From positions 30,047 to 94,046 of the forward strand of contig CAZXAN010000003.1 in NCBI GenBank assembly GCA_964638585.1: a stretch of DNA of 64,000 bases. The letters run 5' to 3'. Position numbers and translations under genes: made by a program. Under the pieces are notes generated by a model. The model was not told where the DNA came from. It saw only the letters and a program-made list of their open reading frames with translations, and made no database searches. Source of the DNA: an uncultured Candidatus Saccharibacteria bacterium (lineage in GTDB: Bacteria > Patescibacteriota > Minisyncoccia > Phycocordibacterales > Phycocordibacteraceae). Shown in pieces: positions 15,576 through 40,697 of the stretch; position 1 is the stretch's first letter, and the number at the start of each line of letters is the position of its first letter.

Positions 15576-15809
15576 TTACATTCCAGAGCCAGAACCGCAG
15601 GCTTTGCAGTCACCCTTGTGTCCTACGGCAAGCACGACTGCTGATAGACCTACTAGCAAGTAGACAAGATTCTCAACTCCAGACCATGAGCCTAAGAGAA
15701 GATTGACTACGTTCCAATTGCTTCCCATCCAGTTACCTAGAGCATAGAGACCCCAGTTGAGGCCGCCGATAATAACTAGAACAAACGTGATTCCATGAAG
15801 TGATTTCAT
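15576..15809 (-). CDS. DUF378-family small membrane protein
   Basis: GGLNWGLYALGNW motif and two TM helices. Confidence 0.6.
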   Translation of the reverse strand: MKSLHGITFVLVIIGGLNWGLYALGNWMGSNWNVVNLLLGSWSGVENLVYLLVGLSAVVLAVGHKGDCKACGSGSGM

Positions 15810-20787: not shown

Positions 20788-23124
20788 TTATAACTCTTTT
20801 GCCTTAAGACGAAGCGAGTTAGAGACCACAGAGACGCTTGAGAGAGCCATCGCGAGACCAGCGAAGACTGGCGAGAGTAGCCAGCCGAATACTGGATAGA
20901 ATACCCCGCCGGCGAGCGGTATGCCAACAATGTTATAGAAGAACGCCCAGAAAAGATTCTGTTTAATTCCTCTCATGGTTAATTTAGAAAGTCTCACGGC
21001 TTTCACGAGTTTAGATATGTCGCCATGGAGGAGTGTGATGCCGGCGCTCTCTATCGCGACGTCCGTTCCTGTTGCCATGGCGATGCCGACGTCCGCCTGT
21101 GCGAGCGCAGGAGCATCGTTAACGCCATCTCCTGCCATCGCAACAATCATTCCCTGCTTTTGCAACTCTTTAATTTTATTTAGTTTGTCCTCTGGCATCA
21201 CCTCTGCGACAACGTCATCAATGCCGACTTGGTCTGCGATATATCGCGCCGTGTTCTTATTATCTCCGGTGAGCATCACTATCTTTATTCCTAACGCATG
21301 CAAGTCTCTCACAGCATGCACAGCTTCTGGCTTTATCGCATCAGCAACCATTGCCACCGCGAGAACATTATCATCTTCTACGAGAATAACTGGCGTCTTA
21401 CCTTCTATCGTATCTTTTTCAAGAGACTCCGGTAACTTGGGGGTTGAACCCCCAAGTTGCTCACCAGCGAGTTTGACGCTCCCAACATGATACTGAACGC
21501 CGTCTATCTTGCCAGTAATCCCCTTCCCTTTCAGCATTTCAAAATTTTCTACAGGTACGAACTCTATGTTTTTTTCTTTTGCATACGCAATCACTGCATG
21601 AGCAATTGGGTGTTCTGACTTATTCTCAAGAGATGCAAGAATCGCAATTATTTCAGCATCACTTTTATCTGAATAATTTTTAAGGGAGACGAGCTCCGGC
21701 TTCCCTCTCGTCAGAGTTCCAGTTTTATCTACGACGACCACGTCCACCTTGTGCAACTTCTCAAGCGTCGCCGCATCTTTGACCAGAATCCCCTCCTTCG
21801 CTCCCTTGCCGACGCCGACGATTATCGCAGTTGGCGTCGCGAGACCGAGCGCACATGGGCAAGCGATAACCAAGATGCTAACAAAAGATACAAGACCATA
21901 AGATAGAGCCTGGGCGAATCCTAGATACTGCGAGCCTACGATAAGCCATGCACCAAGCGCAACAAAAGCTATAACTAAAACAATGGGCACAAAGACGCCC
22001 GAGATTTTATCTGCTAAAGCTTGTATGGGCGCTCTGCTCCCCTGCGCCTCTTCTACCATCTTCACAATATGCGCGAGCATCGTCTCCGAGCCTACTTTTG
22101 TTGCTTTAAAAGTAAACGAGCCCGACGTGTTAATTGTGCCTGCGATCACAGAATCGCCAACCTCTTTCTTCACAGGCATCGGCTCGCCAGATATCATAGA
22201 CTCGTCCACGTGTGACGAACCATCTACTAAGACACCGTCGACTGGGATCTTCCCTGCTGGCTTCACGATAATCAGGTCGCCATGCACTACCTTATCAATT
22301 GGAATTTCTAATTCTTTGCCATCGCGTATCACGAGTGCCGTCTTCGCCTGCATATTCAAGAGCTTCTCTATCGCATCCCCTGTCTTTACCTTCGCTCGCG
22401 CCTCCAGATATTTACCAAGCGCGATAAAAGTTATGACGATAATAGTCACGTCATAATATGTGGCATCTACGTTAATAAACGGTCGTAAACTATCTTCAAA
22501 GGCTGTGACAGCAAAGCTATAGACATAGGCAGCCAACGTCCCAAGCCCAATAAGCGTGTCCATATTCGCCTTGCCATACCGCAAGAATCTATAAAAGCCA
22601 AGCAGATACGGCTTGCCAACTACGAACAGCACGTAAGTCGCCATCAAGGGCAGCAAGTGGTGGAAAAATTCTTTCCAAAAAGTAGACATTTCTGGAGCGG
22701 TCCCAAATTGTGCGAGAATCTCCCACGTCAGAATAAACGCGCTGATAACAGATAGAGGGATTGCAGACATAACCATCGTGCGCATGTCCGCGATCTCTGC
22801 TAATTTATCTGCCTTAGACTGATTAAGACCTAGGTGTCCTGCGTGTTCGCTCTCTGACATCCCCATCTCACTTGCGCTGAGCGAGGCCGAAGTGGACGAA
22901 GTCGGCATTGGGTCAGCAATAATTAAAGAATATCCAAGCGGTTCTATTTTTTTAGAAAGCTCTTTCGGATTCGTCTTCGCAGAGTCGTATGAAATCTTCG
23001 CGGCTTCAGTTCCAGGATTCACTTCTATCGAGTGCACGCCGTCAACCTTTTTAAAAGTCTTTTCTATAATGCTCGCACAACTCGCACAGTGCATTCCTTT
23101 AATCTTGTATGTTTCTGTTTTCAT
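20788..23124 (-). CDS. copA: Copper-translocating P1B-type ATPase
   Basis: N-terminal HMA (GMHCASCASIIEKT), CPC motif in TM6 (ACPCALGLATP), DKTGTLT phosphorylation site and GDGVNDAPAL. Confidence 0.95.
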   Translation of the reverse strand: MKTETYKIKGMHCASCASIIEKTFKKVDGVHSIEVNPGTEAAKISYDSAKTNPKELSKKIEPLGYSLIIADPMPTSSTSASLSASEMGMSESEHAGHLGLNQSKADKLAEIADMRTMVMSAIPLSVISAFILTWEILAQFGTAPEMSTFWKEFFHHLLPLMATYVLFVVGKPYLLGFYRFLRYGKANMDTLIGLGTLAAYVYSFAVTAFEDSLRPFINVDATYYDVTIIVITFIALGKYLEARAKVKTGDAIEKLLNMQAKTALVIRDGKELEIPIDKVVHGDLIIVKPAGKIPVDGVLVDGSSHVDESMISGEPMPVKKEVGDSVIAGTINTSGSFTFKATKVGSETMLAHIVKMVEEAQGSRAPIQALADKISGVFVPIVLVIAFVALGAWLIVGSQYLGFAQALSYGLVSFVSILVIACPCALGLATPTAIIVGVGKGAKEGILVKDAATLEKLHKVDVVVVDKTGTLTRGKPELVSLKNYSDKSDAEIIAILASLENKSEHPIAHAVIAYAKEKNIEFVPVENFEMLKGKGITGKIDGVQYHVGSVKLAGEQLGGSTPKLPESLEKDTIEGKTPVILVEDDNVLAVAMVADAIKPEAVHAVRDLHALGIKIVMLTGDNKNTARYIADQVGIDDVVAEVMPEDKLNKIKELQKQGMIVAMAGDGVNDAPALAQADVGIAMATGTDVAIESAGITLLHGDISKLVKAVRLSKLTMRGIKQNLFWAFFYNIVGIPLAGGVFYPVFGWLLSPVFAGLAMALSSVSVVSNSLRLKAKEL

Positions 23125-23139
23125 AGAATTTTTGTATTT

Positions 23140-23165
23140 CCTAGTGCCTAGAGCCTAACGCCTAT
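23140..23165. repeat. CTAG-heptamer repeat (CCTAGTGCCTAGAGCCTAACGCCTAT)
   Basis: Shares the 17-mer TAGGCTCTAGGCACTAG (as reverse complement) with 4187-4203. Overlaps the csoR stop codon. Confidence 0.75.
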
Positions 23166-23437
23166 TTCCGCTTCAGCTTATAGACCTTCAGCACTTCATT
23201 TACTGCCTTACTACTCTGCCCCGATGTCATCTGCTCGTGTACGCAACCCTTCAGGTGATTCTCCATCAAGAGATCTTCAACAGTTGAGAGTGCCGCCTTC
23301 ACTGCTGACGTCTGCGCGATAACGTCAATACAATATGTATCCTTCTCTATCATCATGGCGAGACCGCGCACCTGTCCCTCAATAATCTTCAACCTTTTGG
23401 CTATTTTCGCGTCCTCTGTTTTATCTCCGTGTTTCAT
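23162..23437 (-). CDS. csoR: CsoR/RcnR-family metal-sensing transcriptional repressor
   Basis: 91-aa DUF156 protein with the conserved C...H...C metal site (YCIDV...HLKGC). First gene of the copA cluster. Confidence 0.85.
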   Translation of the reverse strand: MKHGDKTEDAKIAKRLKIIEGQVRGLAMMIEKDTYCIDVIAQTSAVKAALSTVEDLLMENHLKGCVHEQMTSGQSSKAVNEVLKVYKLKRK

Positions 23438-23448
23438 CCCCCTATCCT

Positions 23449-23465
23449 ATACCCCCTAGGGGTAT
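23449..23465. promoter_or_regulatory. Putative CsoR operator: GC-tract palindrome ATACCCCCTAGGGGTAT between a -35-like TTGACG and -10-like TAGGAT
   Basis: Near-perfect inverted repeat 12 nt upstream of the csoR ATG. CsoR operators are typically AT-flanked G/C-tract palindromes. Confidence 0.65.
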
Positions 23466-23493
23466 CCGTCAAGTGTAGTTGTGGATATGTGAA

Positions 23494-23527
23494 AGGGCGG
23501 GACATCATGTCCCGCCCTGTGTTTTCC
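23494..23527. terminator. Hairpin GGGCGGGACAT/ATGTCCCGCCC followed by GTGTTTTCC
   Basis: Perfect 11-bp stem. The T-run is on the + strand and only a weak U-run exists on the minus strand, so the strand assignment is uncertain. Confidence 0.5.
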
Positions 23528-23734
23528 GATTATCTTGGTTTTAGGATTAATCGGCAACCCCTAGTGCTTTGATTCCGAGTGAGTTTCGCCTCTCACTATC
23601 CCTCATTTAATTTATAACGCGCAGAGAGAGCTGCGCTATCGTTCAATCATCGCTACTAGGCTCCATTTTGTGGTTTACGCGGCTCTGGTCGAGGGTTTTT
23701 ATTTTCGTGAGAACCTAATAACTCACGTTGCGGT

Positions 23735-24076
23735 TCAGACGAACCGCGTCCTGACCGGCGCTTTCGCGTGCTGGCAGGAGTTGCCGTGGATGGTGGCCAA
23801 ATACGCTGCCATAATCCCACGCGGCACCATGCCCAACGGCATGTTACGCATCGTCTTGACCAAATTCCCACGTTGACTGACGCGGGTGAACTCAACGTCA
23901 GCGAACTCTTTTTTTGCAACCGGGCGCTCGGCTCTGCCGAGAAACGCGGCAAGAATGAGCTCACGGTTGGCCGCATCGTCCCCGTCGTTCTTCTTCACGA
24001 CGCGGATGACTCGTGGCGTAAACCCAGCCGCGACCAACTCTGCGATTGTCATGTCAAACACGTTTTTTCCGTTCAT
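23735..24076 (-). CDS. Hypothetical 113-aa protein, compositionally foreign (GC-rich, SD-preceded)
   Basis: An AAAGGAGAA SD lies 6 nt upstream, a TTGACA-N16-TATACT promoter lies upstream, and third codon positions are G/C-skewed, unlike neighbouring genes. Confidence 0.5.
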   Translation of the reverse strand: MNGKNVFDMTIAELVAAGFTPRVIRVVKKNDGDDAANRELILAAFLGRAERPVAKKEFADVEFTRVSQRGNLVKTMRNMPLGMVPRGIMAAYLATIHGNSCQHAKAPVRTRFV

Positions 24077-24140
24077 TGTGTTCTCCTTTTCGAGTGAACT
24101 TCGAACATGCGCATTTCTGCGCGCTTTATTACCTTCTGTA

Positions 24141-24168
24141 AGTATACACGAATAGCTGTATTTGTCAA
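24141..24168 (-). promoter_or_regulatory. Sigma70-like promoter TTGACAaata-N16-TATACT for the 113-aa ORF
   Basis: On the minus strand: TTGACAAATACAGCTATTCGTGTATACT. Confidence 0.55.
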
Positions 24169-24217
24169 TAGCTTTGGGACACCCGCCCAGAAACGCAATA
24201 AATACGACCTATTTTGG

Positions 24218-24236
24218 AACAAGGTTAAACCTTGTT
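24218..24236. repeat. Perfect 19-bp palindrome AACAAGGTTAAACCTTGTT overlapping the AbiEii stop codon
   Basis: 9-bp arms. No U-run follows on the minus strand, so it may be a protein-binding site rather than a terminator. Confidence 0.5.
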
Positions 24237-24912
24237 ATTCTAATATGATTTTGTTGACTACTTGAGGCACTTCTTTTATAAAATAGTCCTTTGCTTCTTT
24301 CCAGCTTGCTTCAAAGAAAATCTCTGGGGCAGGATCACTCTCGGCATCTTCAAAATAGACCAGACTTTTTAAGATATGGTGATAGTCATGGGCCACAAAA
24401 GGATACTGCTCTTTCACTCTTTTCATTAAATTCTCCAATGACTCTATATTCTTTGCGCACCAGTACAGGTCAAAGAAATCGCGCTTCCGCCCGCGTTGCG
24501 AAATGGCGATTATTTTCATAACGGCGATATCCAGCGGCTGTAGAATTTTTATTGAACCGTATTGAATAAAACTTTGATTGGGGACAAAGAACGGATAGGC
24601 AATAAAACTTATTTTGGCCTTAAAGAGTTCGCCATATACTGTATTTTTAGTATTTATGGTCGTCTCCCATTCGTTATTTCCTAAAAAATTTGTGAGTAGT
24701 TCAGATGTATCAAAGTCTGTTGCTGTTGTGAAAAAGTCCAAGTCTACTGACTTGCGATTCCCTACTTGCAGAGCTAGAGCTGTGCCACCAGCAAGATACC
24801 AATCACCTTCTGCGAGCCACGGTTGTTCAGATAAAAAACCAAACGCCTTTTTTGTTGCTACCGGTATTATACTAAAATTTGACTCTATTTGTTCTCTAGA
24901 AGCAGTGTCCAT
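24235..24912 (-). CDS. Nucleotidyltransferase AbiEii/AbiGii-like toxin (DUF1814 family)
   Basis: GGTALALQVGNRKSVDLDFF motif and 225-aa length are typical of type IV TA / abortive-infection NTases. Confidence 0.7.
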   Translation of the reverse strand: MDTASREQIESNFSIIPVATKKAFGFLSEQPWLAEGDWYLAGGTALALQVGNRKSVDLDFFTTATDFDTSELLTNFLGNNEWETTINTKNTVYGELFKAKISFIAYPFFVPNQSFIQYGSIKILQPLDIAVMKIIAISQRGRKRDFFDLYWCAKNIESLENLMKRVKEQYPFVAHDYHHILKSLVYFEDAESDPAPEIFFEASWKEAKDYFIKEVPQVVNKIILE

Positions 24913-25124
24913 AAATTTTTTGTTTGTGGCATTATCGAGCGCGATTTAGCGACCGTGCTTTTTAGTAGCGACTTGTCATAAAAATGATAGAGCCACTTCA
25001 CTTCGCTGTCATTGCCAAAGTCTAAAACTCTCTCAATAATGTATTGAGCATTTTTATCTGTGTCTATCTTCTCTGGATTCGTATCCCAGAATAAAGATTG
25101 TCTGAGCTTCATTACATTCTGCAT
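24885..25124 (-). CDS. Small upstream partner of the AbiEii-like NTase (putative antitoxin, family not recognised)
   Basis: 80 aa from MQNVMKLRQ. Its 3' end overlaps the NTase start by 28 nt, and the raw ORF's longer N-terminus would overlap the ABC ATPase gene. Confidence 0.45.
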   Translation of the reverse strand: MQNVMKLRQSLFWDTNPEKIDTDKNAQYIIERVLDFGNDSEVKWLYHFYDKSLLKSTVAKSRSIMPQTKNLWTLLLENK

Positions 25125-25131
25125 GCTCCAA

Positions 25132-25821
25132 TTATACCATACTTGCGCTCGTTGTTTTGATGATTTTGCCGTCGTCCAGAGTAAGGATGCGGTCAGCGAA
25201 TGAGGCATATTCGTCTTCGTGAGTCACCATAATAATAGTCTGACCTGATTTATGGAGTTCTTTAAAAAGATTCATGACGCGTGATGATGACTCGCGGTCC
25301 AGATTCGCTGTCGGCTCGTCTGCGAAGAGGATGCTTGGCTTATGCGCGATAGCACGTGACACAGACACGCGCTGTTGTTCACCTCCCGAGAGCTGACTCG
25401 GCAAGTTTTTAAGACGATTGCCGAGACCCACTTTCTCAAGCGCAGTACTAGCCTTTTCTTCTGCTACCAAACGCGAAGCCCCCTGCATAATGAGTGGGAG
25501 CGATACATTCTCTATCGCCGTTAGCTCCGGCAGAAGTGCATAATCTTGGAAGACGTAGCCAAATTCTTCTAGCCTAAACACCATCTTTTCTCTTTCGCTC
25601 ATCGCGTGCGCCTCTTTACCATTAATTAAGATCTCGCCTGATGTCGCTTCATCCAGAAGCGACATCTGATAAAGAAGAGTACTCTTCCCCGCTCCCGAGC
25701 GTCCCATAATTGCTACAAACTCGCCCTGCTTAGCGGTAAAGCTAATTCCCTTAAGCACGGTCGTAACATTTGGGCCGTCCTTAAAACTTTTTATTAGATT
25801 TTTAACTTCTATTGTATTCAT
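25132..25821 (-). CDS. ABC transporter ATP-binding protein (MacB/LolD/FtsE-like)
   Basis: Walker A GRSGAGKST, signature LSGGEQQRVSVSRA, Walker B ILFADEPT. Confidence 0.9.
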   Translation of the reverse strand: MNTIEVKNLIKSFKDGPNVTTVLKGISFTAKQGEFVAIMGRSGAGKSTLLYQMSLLDEATSGEILINGKEAHAMSEREKMVFRLEEFGYVFQDYALLPELTAIENVSLPLIMQGASRLVAEEKASTALEKVGLGNRLKNLPSQLSGGEQQRVSVSRAIAHKPSILFADEPTANLDRESSSRVMNLFKELHKSGQTIIMVTHEDEYASFADRILTLDDGKIIKTTSASMV

Positions 25822-38477: not shown

Positions 38478-38505
38478 TTGACGGAATATGGCACAAGAGT
38501 AGGGT
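38478..38505 (+). promoter_or_regulatory. Promoter-like TTGACG-N16-TAGGGTGC upstream of small secreted protein 1
   Basis: The TAGGGTGC box recurs at 39189-39196 upstream of secreted protein 2. Confidence 0.4.
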
Positions 38506-38585
38506 GCTGTCAGGAAGAAGTTGTAAAAGTTGCTAAGTGGATTCCCCACTTGGCGCCCTGTTTGACAAACCAAAGGAGCAGTAAA

Positions 38586-39098
38586 ATGAATAGGATCGCT
38601 CGCTTCACCGCATCACTGCTGTTCGTCGCCGCGCTGTTCCCCGTCCAGGCAATGGCTCAGAAAATGGGTATCCTCGGGGAGTGGGGGTTCAACTTTTCCA
38701 ACGGTCGTTTCCTCAGCCAATCGGTGGAACACAGCTTCGCCGACCTTGGAATGGGTACGGTAACTGTTGAGTTCTCAGCGGTGCCGAGAATCTCCGCGAC
38801 CAAGGAGCTCTATACCGGAAACGTCAAGTCAATCGAGGGTTGGAGCCCCGGATTACAGCCCTACCCCTTCTCTTTTGTTGAGATGTCGTGCACACCGACG
38901 TTTTGGGCGTGCGACATCAGGGTCGTGATCAACTGGAAGGGTCACCTGATCTACGATCTGAACTGGGAGATGGAGGGCAACGTCTCGGTGTCGGGTAAGA
39001 AAATGCTCGGCTCTGAAATGGGGCTTTATTACGAGCAGGGACTAAAGGATCCGTCCTTGCGGTTCTACACAGACATTCACGCCACGAAAGTGAAGTGA
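38586..39098 (+). CDS. Small secreted protein 1 (170 aa, unknown function)
   Basis: Signal peptide (MNRIARFTASLLFVAALFPVQAMAQ), SD AAAGGAG 8 nt upstream, own terminator, GC-enriched. Confidence 0.6.
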   Translation: MNRIARFTASLLFVAALFPVQAMAQKMGILGEWGFNFSNGRFLSQSVEHSFADLGMGTVTVEFSAVPRISATKELYTGNVKSIEGWSPGLQPYPFSFVEMSCTPTFWACDIRVVINWKGHLIYDLNWEMEGNVSVSGKKMLGSEMGLYYEQGLKDPSLRFYTDIHATKVK

Positions 39099-39120
39099 CG
39101 AAAAGGGCAGGACATCACGA

Positions 39121-39152
39121 CGCCGGGGACTTTTGTCCTCGGCGTTTTTTTA
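39121..39152 (+). terminator. Intrinsic terminator CGCCGGGGA-CTTTTG-TCCTCGGCG plus TTTTTTTA
   Basis: 9-bp stem with one mismatch, followed by a T8 run. Confidence 0.75.
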
Positions 39153-39164
39153 TTTAAAAAGAAT

Positions 39165-39194
39165 TTGACAAAATAACGCTATATACTGTAGGGT
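39165..39194 (+). promoter_or_regulatory. Promoter-like TTGACAAAATAA...TATATACTGTAGGGTG upstream of secreted protein 2
   Basis: Shares the TTGACAAA(A)TAA / TATATACT boxes with 39864-39892 and 24141-24168 (minus strand). Confidence 0.45.
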
Positions 39195-39263
39195 GCGACC
39201 AGATGTCCCCGTATAGGCGAAGAGATTCGTCTGCGGTTTCTGCAACTAATATTAGAGGTGATC

Positions 39264-39803
39264 ATGAAAAAGCTCGTGTTTGGTATTTTCGGCGCCATAG
39301 TGGCACTTGCAACAGCCGCAATACCTATGACAGCATCAGCCGCCATGCAGATTGACTCACAGCTGTTGGGTCGCAAGAGTCTTGAAGTCTGTAATGGCGG
39401 GTGGATGACTCCCGATGGAAGTCGCGGGAGCTTCACCTGTCGGACCTGGGAGTTGAATATGCAGTTCGGCCAGATATACCCAGCCTACCAGGGCTACCCT
39501 GAATTGGCGTTATACTTCGGAAATGTCGTAAACTCATGTGGGTCTGGATCGGCAGTTGAACTGTACATAGAGGCTACCAGGCCTGAAGTCGCCGAGATAC
39601 GAGTGCGCCTGGACGTGTGCGATGTACCGCCGATAAACGGCATCCCGCAGGTGTACCTTATCTTGAGCGGTAATCTCTACGCCACGCATCGCCAACATCT
39701 GTACGGGGTGACAACGTCGATAATGTACGATAACCGGAAGCTGGACGGCCACCCGAAAAATATCGGCATGTACGTCGGGTTCGTCGACATAACGCCGAAA
39801 TAG
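39264..39803 (+). CDS. Small secreted protein 2 (179 aa, unknown function, 6 Cys)
   Basis: Signal peptide MKKLVFGIFGAIVALATAAIPMTASA, SD AGAGGTG, own promoter and terminator. Confidence 0.6.
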   Translation: MKKLVFGIFGAIVALATAAIPMTASAAMQIDSQLLGRKSLEVCNGGWMTPDGSRGSFTCRTWELNMQFGQIYPAYQGYPELALYFGNVVNSCGSGSAVELYIEATRPEVAEIRVRLDVCDVPPINGIPQVYLILSGNLYATHRQHLYGVTTSIMYDNRKLDGHPKNIGMYVGFVDITPK

Positions 39804-39821
39804 TTTTCACTCACTCACTTA

Positions 39822-39849
39822 TCGCCAGCCACGTGCTGGCGATTTTTTT
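39822..39849 (+). terminator. Intrinsic terminator TCGCCAGCCACGTGCTGGCGA plus TTTTTTTA
   Basis: Perfect 8-bp stem followed by a T7 run. Confidence 0.8.
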
Positions 39850-39863
39850 ATACCATGACACCT

Positions 39864-39892
39864 TGACAAATAATCACTTTAGGTATATACTA
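39864..39892 (+). promoter_or_regulatory. Sigma70-like promoter TTGACA-N17-TATACT upstream of secreted protein 3
   Basis: TTGACAAATAATCACTTTAGGTATATACT. Confidence 0.55.
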
Positions 39893-39960
39893 TACGTAGT
39901 AGTTCCCCGCTAGGCATCCTGCCTATCGGGCTTTCACAACCAAAGAAAGGAAGTAAAATC

Positions 39961-40632
39961 ATGATGAAATGGCTTGCAGCTGTATTGTTAGTCCTCGGGA
40001 TTTCTGCGAATCTGCCCCAGGCCTCGGCTCAAATGGGGCCACCGACTGTAGGACCGACGCTAGTCGCCTCGTTTGCAGTCCCTTGCGAGATCTACGCCGG
40101 GTACTTCGGTATCCCGGCAGGGTACACAATGGGAATGGGGTACTTCGATGTGTATGACGGAGGCGACCCGTGGATTATCAAATACAACGGCGGCTGTATG
40201 CGGCCGGCGACGCGCTTAGCCGGCAGCATGTCAACCAACCTCGTCGTGAAGATGCTTAAGAAGGGCGCCTTGAGTGGTGGGACCACTCAATACACCTTCG
40301 GGCTCGATATAAAGACCGGACAGATGAATGACGACGGGAGTGAGTACTACTCTTCTGTCGTTCTCAATGGTTGGACGACCAATGGTGCATCCGCGACCGT
40401 CAGCTTCGACCCGAGACAAGGCGCAGGAGAGATTTATTTCTACTTACCACTTCAGACACCTGTTGGACAGGATCAGGCGTTTCTCCAATTCGGTTGCAGA
40501 TTCTTCTCTACAACAGCAAACGAAAGAGAGTGGAAAGGGTTCCTGAATAATTACGCCGATTATCAAGACGGAGGTCGTACGGTCGTCACGATCGGAGGCG
40601 GCGAGTGCTCCGCGAGCCCCAGTAAGGGCTAA
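39961..40632 (+). CDS. Small secreted protein 3 (223 aa, unknown function)
   Basis: Signal peptide MMKWLAAVLLVLGISANLPQASAQ, SD AAGGAAG 7 nt upstream, own terminator. Confidence 0.6.
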   Translation: MMKWLAAVLLVLGISANLPQASAQMGPPTVGPTLVASFAVPCEIYAGYFGIPAGYTMGMGYFDVYDGGDPWIIKYNGGCMRPATRLAGSMSTNLVVKMLKKGALSGGTTQYTFGLDIKTGQMNDDGSEYYSSVVLNGWTTNGASATVSFDPRQGAGEIYFYLPLQTPVGQDQAFLQFGCRFFSTTANEREWKGFLNNYADYQDGGRTVVTIGGGECSASPSKG

Positions 40633-40650
40633 ATCGGCATCGCAGGACGA

Positions 40651-40686
40651 ATCGCCGGGCTCCGTAAGGAGACCGGCGATTTTTTA
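40651..40686 (+). terminator. Intrinsic terminator ATCGCCGG...CCGGCGAT plus TTTTTAT
   Basis: 8-bp perfect stem with a 14-nt loop, then a T-run. Confidence 0.7.
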
Positions 40687-40697
40687 TACACGAGTTT

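Follow-up and report, generated by a model that had tools for sequence, protein, structure and literature searches.

We investigated a 64,000-nucleotide (nt) stretch of a Patescibacteria (Candidate Phyla Radiation, CPR) genome (contig CAZXAN010000003.1, positions 30,047 to 94,046; hereafter the window), focusing on a minus-strand open reading frame for a 113-amino-acid (aa) basic protein, here called ORF113, and the regulatory DNA around it. ORF113 is a real and very rare gene of anomalous composition. It occupies a syntenic slot in related genomes, is preceded by a conserved promoter and leader, and occurs as mosaic alleles. The best explanation as a whole, which we favor with some reserve, is that ORF113 is an exchangeable accessory unit in a slot defined by its promoter. 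See Table 1 for the coordinates of all features described.

We propose that ORF113 would be a monocistronic accessory unit with a strong sigma-70-type promoter, a two-hairpin leader, and a strong Shine-Dalgarno (SD) sequence, lodged in a variable slot with defense/efflux genes on one side and the csoR-copA copper island on the other. Within this slot, the promoter block would be fixed, with the content that follows it differing by genome. The cargo (leader, ORF113, and tail; 24141 to ~23488) would have come in by recombination, with a GC-richer member of its own clade as the source, and within that clade ORF113 alleles would be exchanged among near-identical strains. We regard this evolutionary and architectural description as likely to be correct. 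The product may be an abundantly expressed nucleic-acid-binding regulator or accessory factor, and a hairpin downstream would end the transcript, so that csoR-copA would stay under CsoR control in spite of the strong promoter.

ORF113 belongs to a very rare protein family

A word-indexed search of 5.8 billion proteins retrieved ORF113 itself and no other match. An exhaustive HMMER search of 1.84 billion cluster representatives returned one full-length homolog, P0002, at 69% identity, along with a repeat protein, P0003, which is treated separately below. A later profile search brought the family to five members in all, 113–119 aa long, and the four homologs are 57–69% identical to ORF113. Searches of the JGI metagenomes and IMG/VR with a peptide pattern and a leader DNA motif found no further family members or leader copies.

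The frame had been called in a first-pass annotation of the window, and it is present as described there. Pairwise ratios of nonsynonymous to synonymous substitution (dN/dS) within the family are 0.16–0.39, and variable alignment columns at codon positions 1/2/3 number 56/31/85. Indels among members are in frame, the protein is conserved over its full length, and isoelectric points (pI) range from 10.4 to 11.3. With conserved homologs, low dN/dS, and third codon positions the most variable, ORF113 is a real gene of a very rare family and is under purifying selection.

The same patterns bear on the idea that the open reading frame is a by-product and that the functional element is a structured noncoding RNA that extends from the leader through the GC-rich body into the 3′ tail. 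The codon-position pattern and a dN/dS well below 1 largely refute it, and full-length protein conservation that tolerates in-frame indels also argues for a protein. It is true that conservation is higher in the leader than in the coding sequence, and that a 256-nt stretch including the tail and the hairpin beyond it folds better than shuffled sequences (z = -3.4 and -4.3). However, the tail without that hairpin gives z = -1.5 on the transcribed strand, which is not significant (z = -2.6 on the other strand), and it is conserved in no homologous locus. Rfam, searched over the whole window at gathering thresholds and over 23400–24300 at E ≤ 10, returned nothing relevant, including for the tail, for which the first-pass annotation had suggested this search. 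We consider an RNA element in place of the gene to be highly improbable.

Composition and codon usage resemble those of GC-richer relatives

The segment 23560–24080 had been described as GC-rich. This is correct for the segment overall: its GC content is 53.7%, compared with a mean of 47.0% for the window (z = 1.9), which places it among the top 3% of 520-nt windows. The enrichment is, however, confined to ORF113, which alone reaches 57.6%. The GC content at third codon positions (GC3) of ORF113 is 0.719, the highest of the 77 open reading frames in the window (mean 0.476, standard deviation 0.084; z = 2.9). In its homologs, GC3 is 0.79–0.82. The window orthologs of the genes that neighbor ORF113 in relatives have GC3 of 0.39–0.51 against 0.61–0.79 in the relatives themselves, and are fully ameliorated.

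We compared codon-usage likelihoods under a model from 57%-GC relatives with those under a model from either the bulk of the window or its ribosomal protein genes. Fifty native genes, 10 ribosomal protein genes included, prefer the window model, with a mean difference of -0.354 (standard deviation 0.151, maximum -0.013). ORF113 prefers the relatives' model, by +0.126 bits/codon over the window model and by +0.137 bits/codon over the ribosomal protein model. It is one of the two clearest fits to the relatives' model, the other being the first gene of a three-gene island at 38.5–40.7 kb. ORF113 is thus compositionally foreign, with the codon usage of GC-richer relatives, as is typical of a horizontally acquired gene, and it was probably acquired from such relatives.

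ORF113 occupies a syntenic slot with variable content

The four homologs lie on short contigs of 53–57% GC (L085–L087, 56–57%; L088, 53%). The gene upstream is GroEL in L086 (92% identical), His_Phos in L085, and an ABC ATPase in L088 (85%); downstream are an orphan 143/144-aa gene, DUF378 (78%), Pribosyltran (69%), and PilM (77%). Because these neighbors are orthologs of window genes, ORF113 lies in the same chromosomal interval, from GroEL to DUF378, throughout, and not at a random insertion site.

The closest relatives by PilM are two other contigs, L089 (87% identical, 52.5% GC) and L093 (82%, 54.7% GC), which are nearer to the window than the ORF113-bearing contigs (PilM 77% in L085). Neither carries an ORF113 homolog. 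Both carry the csoR-copA...cupredoxin-DUF378 island at the same place; the copper island is therefore ancestral here, and we rejected the possibility that it is an insertion unique to the window. In L093, His_Phos adjoins csoR, with 77 nt between them. In L089, the promoter block, with its palindrome, spacer, and -35/-10, is present at 2761–2855 (81% identity over 95 nt, E = 4e-20). The homology ends immediately after the -10. Next come an 83-aa gene that is unrelated to ORF113, led by an SD sequence, and equipped with its own terminator, and then DUF3800, before homology to the window restarts at the csoR promoter/operator. The promoter block is kept and the cargo differs between genomes, and thus the block is the constant feature of the slot. 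Of the compositionally foreign module proposed earlier, ORF113 with its highest GC3 remains, but the promoter block was not imported, as it is conserved in L089 ahead of the 83-aa gene. The distribution, with ORF113 present in L085–L088 and absent from the two close relatives examined, is that of a horizontally acquired gene. The DUF3800 gene of L089 (3286–3915), in the slot equivalent to that of ORF113, resembles the PADLOC candidate PDC-M04A (E = 1.2e-6), and the slot therefore behaves like a small defense island.

Furthermore, the ORF113 alleles of L085 (394–738), L086 (631–990), and L087 (163–510) are mosaic. Their coding bodies are 58–82% identical at the DNA level, the promoter and leader are 90–93% identical, and identity rises to 96–100% in the downstream 1 kb, which runs from the final ~50 nt of the reading frame through the 144-aa gene and DUF378. 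Synonymous divergence (dS) in the N-terminal half is about 1.1. A divergent coding body inside near-identical flanks indicates old alleles that have been exchanged between nearly identical backgrounds. In neither half does dN/dS reach 0.41, which gives no support for positive selection. At the slot we saw no integrase, transposase, tRNA target, or flanking or direct repeats, the window holds no second copy of the module, and IMG/VR yielded no match. The module does not qualify as a mobile genetic element, whether insertion sequence, integrative element, prophage, or miniature inverted-repeat transposable element.

In three relatives, ORF113 is followed at a distance of 125–170 nt by the orphan SD-led 143/144-aa gene (L085 864–1298, L086 1160–1591, L087 680–1111). 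This gene has no family in any library searched and is absent from the window.

Vertical descent could also place ORF113 in a syntenic position in four relatives. Here, ORF113 would be an ancestral, core-like gene lost in L089 and L093, and its GC3, SD sequence, and promoter would reflect very high expression. Retention of the promoter block even in L089 agrees with this, and dS between ORF113 and its homologs is as saturated as in neighboring genes. Highly expressed genes of this genome also shift to higher GC3: ribosomal protein genes reach 0.50–0.60, and the L20 gene, at 0.65 with a codon-model difference of +0.031, shows a similar but weaker shift. However, the GC3 of ORF113 is above that of every ribosomal protein gene, and ORF113 favors the relatives' model even over the ribosomal protein model, by the margin given above. 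Native highly expressed genes of this genome lack SD sequences, ORF113 is missing from the two closest relatives, and alleles have demonstrably been swapped between near-identical strains. We therefore consider vertical inheritance unlikely.

Several observations nonetheless weigh against the exchange account or parts of it. The family comprises five sequences on short contigs, four of them from Logan assemblies with similar run accessions (SRR22387852-SRR22388342). The dS of ORF113 against all sampled homologs is 1.1–2.1; synonymous sites are saturated, and therefore no donor was identified. The high GC3 could partly reflect selection for expression, by comparison with that of L20. The leader shows no covariation across the ORF113 loci (0 compensatory pairs), and an RNA hairpin is therefore indistinguishable from a DNA operator. 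On the minus strand, from which ORF113 is transcribed, the T-run after the downstream hairpin is weak (TTTCAC). With respect to function, there is no match in Pfam, PHROGs, NCBIfam, PADLOC, or PDB sequences, and no similar fold in PDB or BFVD.

The event itself is of an ordinary type, a small case of gene flow in a CPR genome that involves a very rare family, and it does not overturn current understanding. What the locus flags is a promoter-anchored slot in which close relatives carry different cargo and near-identical strains carry mosaic alleles.

TABLE 1 Features of the ORF113 locus and neighboring genes, in order along the minus strand
Feature	Position	Strand	Basis or remark
DUF6922	24885-25208	-	Pfam search
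AbiEii	24235-24912	-	Pfam search
19-bp perfect palindrome AACAAGGTTTAACCTTGTT	24218-24236	.	9+9 nt perfect arms, 50 bp upstream of -35
Conserved promoter block: palindrome, ~50 nt spacer, -35/-10	24142-24236	-	81% identical over 95 nt to L089
Sigma-70-type promoter: TTGACA (24168-24163), 16-nt spacer, TATACT (24146-24141)	24141-24168	-	11/12 consensus positions
5′ leader, two hairpins/palindromes	24089-24122	-	Near-invariance across five ORF113 loci
Shine-Dalgarno core AAGGAG	24083-24088	-	6 nt before ATG; kept in all homologs
ORF113, 113-aa basic protein, pI 10.4	23735-24076	-	ORF call and five-member orphan family
Noncoding stretch, 297 nt	between ORF113 and csoR		
Noncoding tail	23519-23734	-	Background GC; no match in 89 related loci
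12-bp perfect GC-rich hairpin	23494-23518	.	12-nt perfect arms
csoR promoter TTGACG-17-TAGGAT	23444-23472	-	Right-hand boundary of module
csoR	23162-23437	-	
copA	20788-23124	-	Followed by more copper-island genes as far as cupredoxin
DUF378	15576-15809	-	

The promoter and leader are conserved

The first-pass annotation had read a consensus promoter, a strong SD sequence, and a palindrome about 50 bp upstream of the promoter, and all three are there. Only two sigma-70 promoters matching 11 of 12 consensus positions occur on either strand of the 64 kb; the one other than that of ORF113, at 39863–39891, also reads TTGACAAATA...TATACT. The TTGACAAAT and TTCGTGTATA promoter motifs are invariant in all six loci, five ORF113 loci among them, and transcription of ORF113 would start near 24134. 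The palindrome overlaps the AbiEii stop codon and forms the distal end of the promoter block. It recurs in L089 (2761–2779) at the same spacing to the promoter and may serve as a terminator, an insulator, or a factor site.

The leader contains two elements, GCGCA-GAAA-TGCGC (24122–24109) and TTCGA-AGTTCAC-TCGAA (24105–24089), the second followed by the AAGGAG core. It is nearly invariant in the five ORF113 loci compared to ~70% identity for the coding sequence, and the rare substitutions sit in loops. With promoter, leader, SD sequence, and gene in one piece, ORF113 is the self-contained unit that had been described.

The AAGGAG of ORF113 is the strongest SD sequence among the 77 open reading frames of the window. 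As had been noted, native genes mostly lack one: an SD core of at least 4 nt lies upstream of 11 of the 77, none of them ribosomal protein genes. SD motifs are also rare in relatives, preceding 3 of 27 genes in L089 and 0 of 30 in L093. The orphan or accessory genes that have one include ORF113, the 144-aa gene, the 83-aa gene of L089, and the genes at 38.5–40.7 kb. Since native genes are almost devoid of SD sequences and accessory or orphan genes have them, the sequence offers a simple marker for recently exchanged Patescibacteria genes.

A hairpin separates ORF113 from the csoR promoter

The tail downstream of ORF113, which had been described as GC-rich with small hairpins, is not GC-rich: its GC content of 44.9–46.3% is at background level. 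It also has no significant fold on the transcribed strand. Searches using blastn and tblastx against 89 related loci and the rest of the window found no match to it. Neither tblastn nor tblastx supported a pseudogene origin of the tail, from the 144-aa gene found in relatives or from any other gene. It is probably a 3′ untranslated region or junction DNA.

Next to the tail is the hairpin, which the first-pass annotation had located correctly. It lies just beyond the csoR-promoter homology with L089 and L093, which ends at 23477/23487, and is the only strong structure between the near-consensus ORF113 promoter and the operator-controlled csoR promoter. The T-run that follows it is good on the plus strand (GTGTTTTCC) but, as noted above, weak on the minus strand. 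Given this position, the hairpin probably terminates ORF113 transcription and shields the csoR promoter from read-through. A CsoR-type operator, ATACCCCCTAGGGGTAT, is found at 23449–23465, between the csoR promoter hexamers, and this promoter/operator block is kept in csoR-copA loci of many Patescibacteria. Since the end of the csoR -10 is 6 nt from the ATG, csoR probably lacks a leader.

The ORF113 protein may bind nucleic acid

Despite searches of Pfam, PHROGs, NCBIfam, PADLOC, and a PDB sequence profile with all five members, no family could be assigned to ORF113, in agreement with the first-pass annotation. The best library scores are noise (LepB_GAP_C, E = 0.28), and we counted as noise the matches of two homologs only to PHROG families of unknown function (E = 0.006–0.009). 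An AlphaFold2 model built from the five sequences is of medium confidence (pLDDT 71.6) and shows, in order, a short helix, a strand, a helix, a long Arg/Lys-rich β-hairpin (residues 55–80), and a final helix. A Foldseek search with this model against PDB and BFVD found no similar fold. No recognizable DNA-binding domain is present in ORF113, and no toxin gene lies downstream of it in the window.

On the basis of the charge of the protein, its predicted basic hairpin, and the invariance of the palindromes, we tentatively suggest that ORF113 could be a highly expressed small nucleic-acid-binding protein, possibly acting on its own leader; we hold this as a possibility with less than even weight. 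The protein may bind the invariant palindromes or hairpins there. The conserved leader of this family, which numbers five sequences among billions, gives a directly testable autoregulation hypothesis. The basic β-hairpin prompted a comparison with HU/IHF, which are superficially similar in that ORF113 is small and basic with a predicted β-hairpin arm. This identity was rejected, with an hhalign probability of 0.07% and no Pfam match.

The hypervariable coding body between near-identical flanks raises the question of whether ORF113 is instead a conflict gene (defense, anti-defense, immunity, or antitoxin-like) in a defense island, with divergent alleles under balancing or diversifying selection. 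The contents of the slot, DUF6922 and AbiEii in the window and the DUF3800 resembling PDC-M04A in L089, would suit such a gene, but ORF113 occurs without AbiE in all relatives. The orphan 143/144-aa gene would be a candidate partner, yet its distance from ORF113 means that the two are not translationally coupled, and the window does without it. Leader palindromes are also a feature of autoregulated toxin-antitoxin operons. Against this are the lack of matches in PADLOC and PHROG, the lack of a positive-selection signal in either half of the gene, and the lack of a related sequence in IMG/VR. We judge this explanation improbable. A broader version, also unlikely in our view, is that ORF113 and its homologs form a new small basic protein family and act as a strain-level conflict or host-interaction determinant of an episymbiont, with the promoter block serving as an integrase-free recombination anchor for cassette exchange. 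Deeply diverged alleles under one invariant promoter and leader would then be shuffled between strains and between Patescibacteria lineages of differing GC content, a prospect to which we give equally little weight. If true, ORF113 would be an immunity, anti-defense, or specificity factor of Patescibacteria strains.

The repeat protein P0003 (1013 aa; ENA metagenome contig of 19,975 bp) contains 14 tandem repeats of ~55 aa that read ITQLAQIIQAGFTPxAIVSVLS[HD/NN/HG]GGSKNLAALKELLTV, with a core like that of transcription activator-like effectors (TALE), a variable di-residue at the position equivalent to the repeat-variable di-residue (RVD), and a ~20-aa linker. These repeats weakly match ORF113 residues 10–34, and residues 11–31 (IAELVAAGFTPRVIRVVKKND) resemble the first helix of the repeat. 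However, hhalign gives the match to the repeat a probability of 15.6% over 21 columns, the loop lacks conservation in the ORF113 family, and there is no Pfam match. The P0003 score (E = 2e-16) is exaggerated because a weak match is repeated 10 times; we rejected ORF113 as a single TALE-like repeat and keep the resemblance as a weak lead.

Three genes at 38.5–40.7 kb share the architecture of the unit

Three consecutive genes at 38478–40690 encode unrelated proteins of 170, 179, and 223 aa and have GC3 of 0.62–0.73. The proteins have hydrophobic, signal-peptide-like N termini, which suggests that they are secreted. None belongs to a Pfam family, and they are not similar to one another. Each gene apparently has its own SD sequence and terminator, and the third has a near-consensus promoter. 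Their codon-model differences are +0.184, +0.037, and -0.011.

The first-pass annotation had linked this island to ORF113 through recurring promoter boxes, SD use, and a shared hairpin string, and had proposed the same donor or mobile source for both. SD use does recur, and one gene has the same promoter hexamers. The string AAAGGGC(G/A)GGACATCA matches 39102–39117 at 15 of 16 positions; with a BLAST E of 2.5 within the window, this is a chance match, and at 39.1 kb it lies outside the hairpin. The codon shift and the style of the expression signals are common to both, but the module and the island have no sequence homology, so "same donor" is a statement about composition. No sign of a mobile element was seen. 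It is plausible that the two come from the same kind of source.

Comparison with known systems

Like strain-variable hotspots and defense islands, the slot is bounded by conserved genes, with GroEL/His_Phos at one end and csoR or DUF378 at the other, and its content was different in each genome examined; it includes defense-type genes (AbiEii in the window, DUF3800/PDC-M04A in L089) and cargo of atypical composition. Unlike these, it has no integrase, transposase, tRNA target, or direct repeats; its constant element is a promoter block and not an attachment site, and its cargo genes are SD-led in a Patescibacterium host with nearly no SD usage.

The unit also resembles phage "morons" in being compact, with its own strong promoter, a downstream hairpin, atypical composition, and a small protein of unknown function, an architecture that the three genes at 38.5–40.7 kb share. 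However, the window has no prophage context, and there is no convincing PHROG match and no IMG/VR or BFVD relative. With integrons the resemblance is one of logic only: different genes stand behind a conserved promoter block in different genomes, and homology breaks off right after the -10, but an integron integrase, attI, and attC-like sites are all lacking, the gene brings its own leader and SD sequence with it, and there is one cargo unit.

Neighboring genes and host chromosome

All genes around ORF113 are on the minus strand. The AbiEii nucleotidyltransferase toxin gene and its DUF6922 partner (24235–25208) overlap by 28 nt, and the partner is not a canonical AbiEi. The pair is missing at the corresponding position in every relative examined.

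The CopA of the window is 70–78% identical to proteins of Kaiserbacteria, Nomurabacteria, and Paceibacterota metagenome-assembled genomes, and its PilM has thousands of relatives in the Parcubacteria group. The host chromosome is that of a Patescibacteria member, Kaiserbacteria/Paceibacterota-like, at ~47% GC. Within its own clade, this genome (47% GC, GC3 ~0.45) is a low-GC outlier, as relatives whose PilM is 77–87% identical have 52–57% GC and GC3 of 0.58–0.75.

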